A stretch of DNA of 29,860 nucleotides, taken from the IMG/VR virus record IMGVR_UViG_2703718820_000019; one strand, given 5' to 3'. A program made the position numbers and the translations under genes. This DNA is from a virus. Lineage: Duplodnaviria > Heunggongvirae > Uroviricota > Caudoviricetes. Positions 3,526 to 6,627 of the stretch are shown here, one piece after another. How positions within the stretch are numbered: the stretch's first letter is position 1; each line of letters opens with the position of its first letter. The notes under the pieces are model-generated. The model searched no databases, was not told where the DNA came from, and saw only the letters and a list, made by a program, of their open reading frames with translations.

Positions 3526-5800
3526 AGCCTCCGGGCGTTTTGTCCCTCCGTCAGCATTTGCCGCAGGCACCGGTAAGGCGTTTACCGGTGCTTATGCATG
3601 GAACGCGCCACGCGAGGCCGTCGGGCGAGAAAGACCTCTTACACGTGACGAGATGCGTCAGGTGCAAGGTGTTTTATCCACGATTAACCGCCTGCCTTAC
3701 TTTTTGCGCTCGCTGTTTACTTCACGCTATGACTACATCCGGCGCAATAAAAGCCCGGTGCACGGGTTTTATTTTCTCACATCCACTTTTCAGCGTCGTT
3801 TATGGCCGCGCATTGAGCGTGTGAATCAGCGCCATGAAATGAACACCGACGCGTCGTTGCTGTTTCTGGCAGAGCGTGACCATTATGCGCGTCTGCCGGG
3901 GATGAATGACAAGGAGCTGAAAAAGTTTGCCGCCCGTATCTCATCGCAGCTTTTCATGATGTATGAGGAACTCTGCGATGCCTGGGTGGATGCGCATGGC
4001 GAAAAAGAATCGCTGTTTACGGATGAGGCGCAGGATCATCTGTATGGTCATGTTGCTGGCGCTGCACGTGCTTTCAATATTTCCCCGCTCTACTGGAAAA
4101 AATACCGTAAAGGACAGATAACCACGAGGCAGGCATATTCTGCCATTGCCCGCCTATTTAACGATGAGTGGTGGACTCATCAGCTTAAAGGCCAGCGTAT
4201 GCGCTGGCATGAGGCGTTACTGATTGCTGTCGGGGAGGTCAATAAAGACCGTTCTCCTTATGCCAGTAAACATGCCATTCGTGATGTGCGTGCGCGCCGC
4301 CAGGCAAATCTGGAATTTCTTAAATCGTGTGACCTTGAAAACAGGGAAACCGGCGAGCGCATCGACCTTATCAGTAAGGTGATGGGCAGTATTTCTAATC
4401 CTGAAATTCGCCGGATGGAGCTGATGAACACCATTGCCGGTATTGAACGTTACGCCGCCGCAGAGGGTGATGTGGGGATGTTTATCACGCTGACCGCGCC
4501 GTCAAAGTATCACCCGACACGTCAGGTCGGAAAAGGCGAAAGTAAAACCGTTCAGCTTAATCACGGCTGGAACGATGAGGCATTTAATCCAAAGGATGCG
4601 CAGCGTTATCTCTGCCGTATCTGGAGCCTGATGCGTACGGCATTCAAGGATAATGATTTACAGGTCTACGGTTTGCGTGTCGTCGAGCCACACCACGACG
4701 GAACGCCGCACTGGCATATGATGCTTTTTTGTAATCCACGCCAGCGTAACCAGATTATCGAAATCATGCGTCGCTATGCGCTCAAAGAGGATGGCGACGA
4801 AAGAGGAGCCGCGCGAAACCGTTTTCAGGCAAAGCACCTTAACCGGGGCGGTGCTGCGGGATATATCGCGAAATACATTTCAAAAAATATCGACGGCTAT
4901 GCACTGGATGGTCAGCTCGATAACGATACCGGTAAGCCGCTTAAAGATACTGCCGCGGCTGTTACCGCATGGGCGTCAACGTGGCGCATCCCGCAATTTA
5001 AAACGGTTGGACTGCCGACAATGGGGGCTTACCGTGAACTACGCAAATTGCCTCGCGGCGTCAGTATTGCTGATGAGTTTGACGAACGCGTCGAGGCTGC
5101 TCGCGCTGCCGCAGACAGTGGTGATTTTGCGTTGTATATCAGCGCGCAGGGTGGGGCAAATGTCCCGCGCGATTGTCAGACTGTCAGGGTTGCCCGTAGC
5201 CCGTCGGATGACGTTAACGAGTACGAGGAAGAAGTCGAGAGAGTGGTCGGCATTTACGCGCCGCATCTCGGCGCGCGTCATATTCATATCACCAGAACGA
5301 CGGACTGGCGCATTGTACCGAAAGTTCCGGTCGTTGAGCCTTTGACTTTAAAAAGCGGCATCGCCGCGCCTCGGAGTCCTGTCAATAACTGTGGAAAGCT
5401 CACCGGTGGTGATACTTCGTTACCGGCTCCAACGCCTTCTGAGCACGCCGCAGCAGTGCTTAATCTGGTTGATGATGGTGTTATCGAATGGAATGACCCG
5501 GAGGTCGTGAGGGCGCTCAGGGGCGCATTAAAACACGACCTGAGAACACCAAGCCGTCAGCAAAGAAACGGAAGCCCGTTAAAACCGCATGAAATTGCAC
5601 CATCGGCCAGACTGACCCGGTCGGAACGATTGCAAATCACCCGTATCCGCGTTGACCTTGCTCAGAACGGTATCAGGCCGCAGCGATGGGAGCTTGAGGC
5701 GCTGGCGCGTGGCGCGACCGTAAATTACGACGGGAAAAAATTCACGTATCCGGTCGCTGATGAGTGGCCGGGATTCTCAACAGTAATGGAGTGGACATGA
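3515..5800 (+). CDS. A: Replication initiation protein A (rolling-circle HUH endonuclease)
   Basis: From the ATG at 3515 (MAVKASGRFVPPSAFAAGTGK...) gives 761 aa, the P2 A length, and is near-identical to P2 gpA as I remember it. Contains the HUH motif (PHWHMMLF) and the active-site tyrosine pair (GYIAKYISKN). The listed ORF start at 3473 is a TTG. Confidence 0.95.
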   Translation: MAVKASGRFVPPSAFAAGTGKAFTGAYAWNAPREAVGRERPLTRDEMRQVQGVLSTINRLPYFLRSLFTSRYDYIRRNKSPVHGFYFLTSTFQRRLWPRIERVNQRHEMNTDASLLFLAERDHYARLPGMNDKELKKFAARISSQLFMMYEELCDAWVDAHGEKESLFTDEAQDHLYGHVAGAARAFNISPLYWKKYRKGQITTRQAYSAIARLFNDEWWTHQLKGQRMRWHEALLIAVGEVNKDRSPYASKHAIRDVRARRQANLEFLKSCDLENRETGERIDLISKVMGSISNPEIRRMELMNTIAGIERYAAAEGDVGMFITLTAPSKYHPTRQVGKGESKTVQLNHGWNDEAFNPKDAQRYLCRIWSLMRTAFKDNDLQVYGLRVVEPHHDGTPHWHMMLFCNPRQRNQIIEIMRRYALKEDGDERGAARNRFQAKHLNRGGAAGYIAKYISKNIDGYALDGQLDNDTGKPLKDTAAAVTAWASTWRIPQFKTVGLPTMGAYRELRKLPRGVSIADEFDERVEAARAAADSGDFALYISAQGGANVPRDCQTVRVARSPSDDVNEYEEEVERVVGIYAPHLGARHIHITRTTDWRIVPKVPVVEPLTLKSGIAAPRSPVNNCGKLTGGDTSLPAPTPSEHAAAVLNLVDDGVIEWNDPEVVRALRGALKHDLRTPSRQQRNGSPLKPHEIAPSARLTRSERLQITRIRVDLAQNGIRPQRWELEALARGATVNYDGKKFTYPVADEWPGFSTVMEWT
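5366..5385 (+). other. Candidate origin of replication / A-protein nick site (GCGCCTCGGAGTCCTGTCAA) inside gene A
   Basis: Sequence matches my recollection of the P2 ori nick region, which lies within the A coding sequence. Recalled from memory, not verified. Confidence 0.4.
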
Positions 5801-6252
5801 TGGCAAAAATTCACGAGGTAAAGCTGCACGCAAAATATTTCGACCTTGTACTGGAAGGAAAGAAACGCGCAGAGTTTCGGAAAAATGACCGTAATTATGA
5901 GCGTGGGGACACGTTGATTTTGCATGAATGGGTGCAGGGTGTGTATACGGGGCGAAAGGTTGAAGCCCGGATAACAGATGTTACTGACCTGTCAGACTGG
6001 CTGGAAGATTATGTCTTGCTAAGTATTGAGCGGCTTAATACAGGCGAATATGAGATTGTGAACTGGAAAGAACTTAGTGAGCGTGGTCTGGTATTCAGAA
6101 TTAATCATGAAATTATGCATCAGCTCGGCCTTGCTGTTATGTATGAATCAGAGACGGGGATGTCTGGCGGGGCAATGGTAGCCACGGATGGAGCATGGAA
6201 CTATTCAGATGAACAGATGGAGCGTGCAAAGCAAAACGGGTGGCTTGGATAA
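5800..6252 (+). CDS. ASCH/DUF3850-like (PUA-fold) domain protein with a C-terminal extension of unknown function; cargo at the P2 tin/old position
   Basis: ATG at 5800 (ATGATG overlapping the A stop TGA; SD GGAG 7 nt upstream). The N-terminal ~75 aa carry the ASCH signature GxKxxExR (EGKKRAEFRKNDR...GD) and the DUF3850-like pattern HEVKLHAKYFDLVLEGKK. The C-terminal ~75 aa have no recognisable motif. Not a homologue of P2 orf91, tin or old. Confidence 0.75.
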   Translation: MAKIHEVKLHAKYFDLVLEGKKRAEFRKNDRNYERGDTLILHEWVQGVYTGRKVEARITDVTDLSDWLEDYVLLSIERLNTGEYEIVNWKELSERGLVFRINHEIMHQLGLAVMYESETGMSGGAMVATDGAWNYSDEQMERAKQNGWLG

Positions 6253-6458
6253 TGCACAGAATACCAGGCGAGATACCGCACCATAAAACTAAAAATATCA
6301 AGCTGATGGCTATTGTTCAGCGTTTACAGCGGATTATGGTCAACGAAAATCTGACGCCCGATGAGCTGGTCGGGTGTGCCGAAATAGTACGGGATAATTA
6401 CGGGCGGCTTAACTATATCGGTCAGTCCAGAGTTGCGCCACCACCACGCAGACTATAG
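6252..6458 (+). CDS. Small hypothetical protein translationally coupled to the ASCH-like gene
   Basis: ATG at 6252 overlapping the upstream stop (TAATG); 68 aa, no recognisable domain. The listed ORF start at 6240 is a GTG. Confidence 0.45.
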   Translation: MHRIPGEIPHHKTKNIKLMAIVQRLQRIMVNENLTPDELVGCAEIVRDNYGRLNYIGQSRVAPPPRRL

Positions 6459-6601
6459 AGAACGCCGCCAGTCGTGAAACTTGTTTTCAGGGCTGGCGGG
6501 GTTGAACAACGAGCGTAGCGAGGCGTTAGCTGGTTATCAGATTGACTCCTGGTATTATTGGCGCATAGCGCGGCCAGTAACCACAATGAAGCCGACTCAA
6601 A

Positions 6602-6627
6602 CCGGCAACCTGAATGCCGGTTTTTTT
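6602..6627 (+). terminator. Rho-independent terminator ending the early (A-cargo) operon
   Basis: Stem CCGGCA (6602-6607) / TGCCGG (6615-6620), 7-nt loop, followed by TTTTTTT (6621-6627). Confidence 0.6.

Follow-up and report, generated by a model that had tools for sequence, protein, structure and literature searches.

A full-length homologue of P2 orf91 and its small overlapping partner gene, between replication gene A and the tin/old slot of a P2-like prophage

Results

Two overlapping genes follow replication gene A

The virus record IMGVR_UViG_2703718820_000019 is a stretch of 29,860 nucleotides (nt), referred to here at its full length as the window. It represents a whole P2-like prophage with the gene order int, C, cox, B ... 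A, p150, p68, cos, Q ... ogr, followed by a host cation-efflux gene. The subject of this analysis is the two open reading frames (ORFs) directly downstream of the replication gene A, at 5797–6252 and 6252–6458, which we named p150 and p68 and which together are called the pair. A first-pass annotation, made from the sequence alone, had described them as unusual cargo at the P2 tin/old position and as a candidate new defence system. The features of the locus are as follows.

3515–5800, plus strand: replication gene A, encoding a P2 gpA-type rolling-circle endonuclease (ORF; the P2 and Wphi A annotations align)
5787–5790, plus strand: GGAG Shine-Dalgarno sequence for p150, within the last codons of A, 6–9 nt upstream of the start (read from the sequence)
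5797–6252, plus strand: p150, a full-length P2 orf91 homologue of 150 or 151 amino acids (aa) (ORF, Pfam, PHROG, megablast)
5809–6027, plus strand: DUF3850/minimal ASCH domain of p150 (PUA-like beta-barrel), aa 5–77, with the GKER octapeptide G21-K23-E26-R28
6046–6249, plus strand: DUF7415 domain of p150, structurally aa ~84–151, with the Pfam core at aa 87–129
6252–6458, plus strand: p68, a small helical partner of 68 aa, whose start overlaps the p150 stop inside TAATG
6459–6529, plus strand: conserved spacer and left anchor of the slot, with a hairpin at ~6461–6503 followed by the invariant GTTGAACAACGAGC...GCGAGGCGTTAG
6530–6750, no strand: tin/old hotspot slot, empty here, with only the early-operon terminator and no credible gene
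6599–6630, plus strand: intrinsic terminator of the early operon, with a 9-bp stem at 6599–6623, a 7-nt loop and a T-run
6787–6805, plus strand: P2 cos, the 19-nt cohesive-end sequence GGCGAGGCGGGGAAAGCAC (read from the sequence; aligns to cosR, annotated where the P2 record ends)

The product of gene A is 98% identical to an annotated 'replication endonuclease'. Two tandem ATGs at 5797 and 5800 can start p150, giving 151 or 150 aa, and this start overlaps the A stop codon, TGA at 5798–5800 (ATGA/TGATG). The start codon of p68 is backed by its homologues, all of which begin with MH. Both couplings proposed by the first-pass annotation, ATGATG over the A stop and TAATG into the 68-aa ORF, are directly legible in the sequence, and the terminator that it had placed at 6602–6627 was recovered with slightly wider limits.

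The two genes of the pair come last in the early (Pe, replication) operon, coupled to A and followed by the terminator that closes it just before cos. No sigma-70-like site was found on the plus strand between 5300 and 5800 by a simple consensus scan, which weak promoters can escape. Lacking a promoter of its own and overlapping the A stop, the pair should depend on the early promoter, whose repression should keep it silent in the lysogen; we infer that it is expressed together with A in lytic growth. Independent expression in the lysogen from a dedicated promoter, as known for old-tin, is not what the locus suggests, with codons overlapping A and no promoter-like site upstream.

p150 matches phrog_1812 over its full length (8.5e-82) and p68 matches phrog_11386 (5e-39), both annotated as of unknown function. 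Homologues of p68 fall into 179 clusters in which the length, the two-helix core and the PPRR tail are kept; the conserved core reads IKLMAIV..LQ..M.NENLTP.ELVGCAEIVRDNY. Proteins of exactly these sequences are on record at NCBI for E. coli and Salmonella (37–39 contigs each), p150 as 'DUF3850 domain-containing protein' and p68 as 'hypothetical protein', and Table S5A of Rousset et al. 2022 (PMC9122126) lists the arrangement WP_001461843 plus WP_000554772. The genes, their arrangement and their domain families are already public in databases and a published supplementary table, without an assigned function.

p150 corresponds to P2 orf91 and to Wphi orf91 and orf92

A megablast search of phage genomes found the end of A together with both ORFs at 96–98% DNA identity in Wphi, P22H4, 9W, S164, vB_YpM_46 and others. 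P2 itself is 97–98% identical over the end of A and the first 75 codons of p150. Both the position directly after A and this high identity place p150 as an orthologue in the group formed by P2 orf91 (NP_046796, 109 aa) and Wphi orf91-orf92 (gp91 and gp92, NP_878238 and NP_878239). These genes occupy the same locus and overlap gene A directly, and the first 75 residues of p150 are nearly identical to those of P2 Orf91. However, P2 Orf91 is without DUF7415 and the Wphi gene is split in its record, whereas the window carries the intact form of 150 plus 68 aa.

Homology to P2 stops at window position 6020. P2 Orf91 shares residues 1–75 with p150 and continues with HRILGEI, which is the start of p68. 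P2 joins window position 6020 to 6253 (24 of 27 positions matching), a 232-bp deletion (6021–6252) that removes DUF7415 and leaves the ASCH part joined to the opening codons of p68, shortly ahead of the tin-old cargo. On this alignment P2 orf91 reads as the truncated remnant of a two-domain gene, and p150 as its intact form. The literature that we searched on P2 'orf91' says only 'function unknown'.

The annotated P2 Orf91 (record L002, NC_001895, 3598–3927) is a chimera of ASCH residues 1–75, about nine p68 residues and then unrelated sequence. In the Wphi record (L001, NC_005056, 2598–3113) several frameshifts, due either to sequencing error or to real decay, split the 150-aa gene into orf91 (93 aa) and orf92 (64 aa). 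The Wphi DNA also encodes p68, unannotated in the record.

p150 joins a minimal ASCH domain to DUF7415

Three Pfam families match p150 above their gathering cut-offs: DUF3850 (PF12961; 65.1 bits versus 22.9, aa 5–77, 6.6e-18), ASCH (PF04266; 43.6 bits versus 21.2, 5.1e-11) and DUF7415 (PF24187; 51.6 bits versus 27, aa 87–129, 1.1e-13). The GxKxxExR signature and DUF3850 pattern that the first-pass annotation had seen in the N-terminal half are both confirmed by this hidden Markov model (HMM) check, the octapeptide being G21-K22-K23-R24-A25-E26-F27-R28. Its fusion architecture also stands, but the C-terminal half that it called unrecognised is a catalogued Pfam family.

The N-terminal domain is 35% identical to the 83-aa Enterococcus faecalis protein 3IUW (3.8e-13) and has the PUA-like beta-barrel fold. 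Barrel and octapeptide are shared across the DUF3850/ASCH family (3IUW, YqfB, TthASCH, ZmASCH, TRIP4), of which p150 is a minimal version of ~75 aa, differing in its fusion to DUF7415. To our knowledge, no DUF3850 protein has a known activity. The literature found on DUF3850 discusses it only as a fusion partner of the ParB CTPase. Such ParB-CTPase-DUF3850 proteins are enriched in phages and prophages and are encoded beside parA (PNAS 2025, PMC12704722). The prophage fusions of this type (phrog_986, match 6.9e-43) have the DUF3850 domain in common with p150, but the partner is a ParB CTPase there and DUF7415 here.

Among ASCH proteins with an assigned chemistry, YqfB uses a Thr-Lys-Glu triad with Thr as the nucleophile (PMC6972931). 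The N4-acetylcytidine (ac4C) amidohydrolases of the YqfB type have this Thr (or Ser) nucleophile in a GKTR octapeptide, whereas p150 has Glu26 at that place. According to a 2026 preprint whose 19 tested ASCH proteins include no DUF3850-type member (10.64898/2026.02.27.708502), ASCH proteins of the GKER type strip ac4C off tRNA by means of a Lys-Glu dyad. p150 has the Lys-Glu pair of that dyad, K23 and E26. All of 10 orthologues keep K23 and R28, but three of them (P0025, P0026 and P0049) have Leu in place of E26.

The structure prediction that had been suggested for the C-terminal half gave a confident model of DUF7415 alone (predicted local distance difference test, pLDDT, 92.4), consisting of two helices, a beta hairpin and a helix. 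This fold had no match in the PDB, and a Foldseek search of BFVD returned other DUF7415 proteins only. A sequence-profile search of the PDB with p68 and DUF7415 yielded talin noise (E 0.24) and the ASCH match 3IUW. PADLOC-DB 2.0 gave a single 20-residue match to p150 at E 0.023 and none to p68, and an NCBIfam scan of the pair gave no useful match. The p150 sequence HEIMH (H104-E105-x-x-H108) had suggested that DUF7415 is an HExxH zincin, acting as a DNA-protein crosslink protease on gpA; this idea was dropped, as other DUF7415 proteins have N, K, R or T in place of the first His and no match to a protease fold was obtained.

The tin/old slot begins downstream of the pair

The window was compared pairwise with several relatives in order to map the junctions. 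For Wphi, a prophage of Enterobacter (L004) and an E. coli prophage carrying a reverse transcriptase (RT) gene (L010), homology ends at window position 6529/6530, ~70 bp past the p68 stop, and returns at 6658–6758, just left of cos. As the cargo of the relatives begins after the pair, at ~6530, the real tin/old slot is 6530–6750 and it is empty in the window. The segment 6459–6640 is present in full in only five of 5426 complete E. coli genomes, so that this prophage is a rare empty-slot form. The slot contains a dubious minus-strand ORF of 53 or 54 aa, without a Pfam or PADLOC match, whose counterpart in a near-identical genome is annotated by the Prokaryotic Genome Annotation Pipeline (PGAP).

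The conserved spacer that precedes the slot folds into a stable hairpin (96-nt fold of -38.3 kcal/mol, z -3.2). In an alignment of four sequences, 95.6% of the cells are paired and two stem pairs are changed on both sides. The anchor is kept at 78–83% identity in the Enterobacter prophage and in an E. coli prophage without p150. Its role could be that of an insulator or mRNA 3'-end element, or of a homology anchor for cassette exchange. An Rfam scan of 5700–7000 returned nothing credible. The 8-mer GCGAGGCG occurs both at 6518–6525, the invariant end of the anchor, and at 6788–6795, in the cos core; about one such match per window is expected by chance.

The interval from A to Q is a known defence hotspot (Rousset et al. 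2022, PMC9122126), and the pair lies within it, between gpA and gpQ. P2 Tin and Old share with the pair a position between A and cos. Unlike the pair, tin and old are found past the junction and on the other strand, under their own promoter, which is active in lysogens and has a mapped transcript start; there is no sequence or domain similarity between the Tin/Old proteins and the pair. The comparison across P2-like prophages that was proposed with the first-pass annotation bore out its statement that the A-to-cos interval varies, but not its placing of the pair at the tin/old position: p150 is the gene listed separately for P2 as orf91, and cargo starts after it and p68.

The pair is intact in hundreds of genomes and frequently lost

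We searched the 5426 complete E. coli genomes with megablast, which detects identities of ~85% or more, so that the following counts are lower bounds.

A 3' end: matched in 1585 genomes
ASCH part of p150: matched in 378 genomes
DUF7415 part of p150: matched in 351 genomes
p68: matched in 371 genomes

With window positions 5400–6640 as the query, A, p150 and p68 are kept together in 342 of 1586 genomes (22%), and the others lose homology ~20 nt before the A stop. As for which segment is exchanged, the pair is kept and the cargo varies past 6529 in the 342 genomes, and the pair itself is replaced in ~1200. The states without the pair include an RT gene with p68 remnants beside it, a DUF7380 gene, and an ASCH remnant of 27 aa with ParB-N and Dam behind it. 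Three E. coli prophages that lack the pair differ in the last codons of A (…GFSTNI in L010, …WSWFYCYSEQ in L011 and …STVMARI in L012), which indicates that cargo replacement cut into the 3' end of A, and removed the pair, several times independently. The pair thus borders the slot as a dispensable unit that is prone to erosion.

Hundreds of genomes carry both frames intact. At 90% identity the sequences form two clusters of 510 and 144 members, and single sequences occur on hundreds to 1000 contigs. The same arrangement is found in a prophage of Enterobacter ludwigii, which has A, a 154-aa DUF3850 plus DUF7415 gene, an overlapping 77-aa gene, cargo of its own and the portal gene. The window and the Enterobacter prophage were compared for protein identity and for the ratio of nonsynonymous to synonymous substitution rates (dN/dS); dS is near saturation and the ratios are approximate.

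A: protein identity 74%, dN/dS 0.12
p150: protein identity 54%, dN/dS 0.17
p68: protein identity 63%, dN/dS 0.145
Q: protein identity 78%, dN/dS 0.146

By these ratios both ORFs are real genes, and p150 and p68 are under purifying selection.

DUF7415 is widespread in phages, near genes for DNA synthesis

A profile search of 1.84 billion representative proteins identified 2264 DUF7415 clusters at 50% identity, mostly stand-alone proteins of 70–110 aa. With tblastn the domain was found in 894 phage genomes, most of them virulent and T4-like or T5-like, and P2-like and 186-like phages have it as well. The family is confined to phages, and its members are nearly always encoded among genes for replication or for DNA precursors. 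The family pattern, W..GL..RIN.E..HPLG...G.S.GA...DG, spans ~60 aa, with the conserved polar residues R101, N103, E105, H108, S123 and D131 (p150 numbering). A literature search for DUF7415 found no mention of it.

In phage T5, the adjacent genes T5.106 and T5.107 (L018, 4800–5630) each contain two DUF7415 copies. They lie downstream of nrdD, of Sir2-like genes and of a HAD_SAK_2 gene, and upstream of origin-binding and helicase genes. The old T5 annotation of this region already says 'similar to ORF91'. The genes nrdD and nrdG encode the anaerobic ribonucleotide reductase and its activase; in Klebsiella phage JD18 (L019, 3492–3710) the 72-aa DUF7415 gene JD18_054 overlaps the end of nrdD and the start of nrdG. 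These proteins of virulent phages share with p150 the domain and the early location near DNA-synthesis genes. They differ in being stand-alone or tandem, without ASCH, and in lying beside nrdD/nrdG, whereas p150 lies beside the replication initiator.

Metagenomic phages encode DUF7415 beside NrdA/NrdB, a UvsW-like helicase and DHFR. Its place in the early operon of 186-type phages is between a DksA-type zinc finger gene and Dam, upstream of A, and it directly follows a Toprim primase-helicase in two P2-like elements that have an initiator unrelated to gpA. Among 40 longer members, the fused domains are dATP/dGTP pyrophosphohydrolase (in three), thymidylate kinase, an Rv2179c-like 3'-5' exoribonuclease, DUF3850, PGDYG and DUF551.

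One of the proteins encoded directly after a Toprim primase-helicase, of 188 aa (L009, 2597–3163), combines a p68-like N-terminus, a ClpX-type C4 zinc finger (a sub-threshold Pfam match, 20.2 bits versus a cut-off of 27) and DUF7415. The N-terminal 50 aa of p68 are homologous to the N-terminus of this fusion (BLASTP, 4e-8). The presence of a p68-like part and DUF7415 in one chain links p68 functionally to DUF7415.

Discussion

From the identity, position, coupling, selection, domain content and neighbourhoods described above, we favour, at about an even chance of being right, the reading that the pair is an accessory, dispensable to the phage, whose targets during the early lytic phase are nucleic acids or nucleotide metabolism in or close to replication. 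It probably does not serve the lysogen as a defence system. Under this reading the pair would be made together with A after infection or induction. The ASCH barrel of p150 would be a head that binds nucleic acid, probably RNA or single strands, and it might have a catalytic role as an amidohydrolase of the N4-acylcytidine type. DUF7415 would act as a phage-specific module of ~60 aa, with relatives beside or fused to replication and DNA-precursor enzymes, and p68 would be its helical partner. Together DUF7415 and p68 may tie the ASCH head to the DNA-synthesis machinery of the phage, or to its nucleotide or nucleic-acid substrate. A core role in replication is excluded, since the pair is dispensable: P2 is viable and most related prophages lack it.

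Several points weigh against this reading. P2 does without DUF7415 and p68, and ~78% of the E. coli prophages with this type of A lack the pair. The Leu found at the catalytic Glu of the ASCH octapeptide in three of the 10 orthologues speaks against a conserved enzymatic role. The neighbourhood of DNA-synthesis genes may only mirror membership in early gene clusters, which also hold anti-defence genes, and Acb1, NUDIX and Sir2-like genes are indeed found near DUF7415 genes. The fusion of a p68-like part to DUF7415 comes from one 3.5-kb contig, and the promoter scan, being a simple consensus scan, may miss weak promoters.

The main rival reading, a possibility that we consider real but would not bet on, is that the pair is an early counter-defence or host-takeover factor, whose ASCH domain strips or binds a modified base on host tRNA or RNA and whose DUF7415 binds a host protein or a nucleotide signal. 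The pair is accessory, patchy and predicted to be expressed early. The DUF7415 proteins are mostly stand-alone with many conserved polar residues, which suggests a ligand-binding or active site, and in T4-like phages and T5 they have Acb1, NUDIX, GmrSD_N, Sir2-like and RNA-repair HAD genes as neighbours. K23 and E26 of p150 would also fit the Lys-Glu dyad with which GKER-type ASCH proteins reportedly strip tRNA ac4C (10.64898/2026.02.27.708502). However, DUF3850-type proteins are missing from the 19 studied in that preprint, and E26 is not kept in three of 10 orthologues. No homology to described anti-defence proteins was found, in a search made without an anti-defence HMM library, and the recurrent partners of DUF7415 are Nrd, DHFR, thymidylate kinase, helicase and initiator genes, which are not defence-related.

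The reading of the first-pass annotation, by which the two genes form a new system of defence or superinfection exclusion and would be lysogenic-conversion cargo of the P2 hotspot, appears unlikely. The position of the pair in the A-to-Q interval, a defence hotspot according to Rousset et al. 2022 (PMC9122126), and its presence in only ~22% of related prophages would agree with it. The pair is, however, an orf91 homologue upstream of the recurrent junction at 6530. It overlaps the A stop without a promoter of its own, whereas tin and old are on the other strand with their own mapped transcript start. The best PADLOC match has an E-value of 0.023 and covers 20 residues, strictly virulent phages have DUF7415 in abundance (894 phage records), and the pair co-diverges with the backbone into Enterobacter; the proteins and their arrangement were, moreover, already public. 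A toxin-antitoxin or addiction pair that stabilises the prophage is still less credible. Two small overlapping genes in a mobile-element hotspot might bring such a system to mind, but they lack the type II hallmarks of an autoregulated promoter of their own and a DNA-binding antitoxin domain, no toxin or antitoxin family was matched in Pfam, NCBIfam or PADLOC, homologues of the larger gene stand alone in virulent phages, and P2 keeps half of one gene without harm. It is equally improbable that the genes are decaying, functionless leftovers on the way to replacement by cargo: the repeated loss and truncation, with independent breakpoints in the last A codons or inside orf91, would be expected of decay, but the frames are intact in hundreds of genomes (the clusters of 510 and 144 sequences), dN/dS is ~0.15 across genera, and length and motifs are conserved.

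Going beyond this prophage, we suggest as a speculative and rather doubtful generalisation that DUF7415, with or without a p68-like partner, is a widespread phage module with a new small fold, which may bind a nucleotide or a component of DNA synthesis and regulate or protect precursor supply or replication, and to which P2-type phages would recruit an ASCH domain, with an activity possibly directed at RNA or ac4C. If true, it would give a function to P2 orf91 and to T5.106/T5.107 together.

As the evidence points away from defence, the locus should not join the list of defence candidates. The left edge of the P2 hotspot is redrawn by the junction mapping, with cargo usually beginning at the hairpin-containing anchor ~70 bp after p68, and hotspot studies could use the empty-slot prophage as a clean chassis or as a reference. 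The steady placement of DUF7415, a large and unstudied phage family, near genes for replication and deoxynucleoside triphosphates is a testable lead. The truncation of P2 orf91, the 70-bp anchor as the edge of the slot and the DNA-synthesis neighbourhood of DUF7415 appear not to have been written down before; we regard them as modest leads and not as a new system.

Other features of the window

The remaining annotated features of the prophage are listed here.

1–1011, minus strand: integrase
1051–1344, minus strand: helix-turn-helix (HTH) repressor
1497–1769: Cox
6954–6969, minus strand: terminator of the convergent P-Q (terminase/portal) operon
6975–8009, minus strand: portal gene Q, the right boundary of the A-to-Q interval
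27936–28217: Ogr

A serine recombinase of the Hin/Gin/Cin invertase type is encoded at 20962–21555 (Resolvase, 3e-52, plus HTH_7), directly after the tail-fibre genes H and G, where it occupies the position of the second variable locus of P2 (Z/fun). A search of the window for a second gix-like site for this invertase gave only one half-site at chance level (19758–19769, within H) and a single weak inverted repeat of 15 nt, so that an invertible segment among the tail-fibre genes is not evident. Beyond ogr, a 133-aa ORF on the minus strand (28269–28670), without a Pfam or PADLOC match, precedes the host cation-efflux gene that forms the right end of the window.

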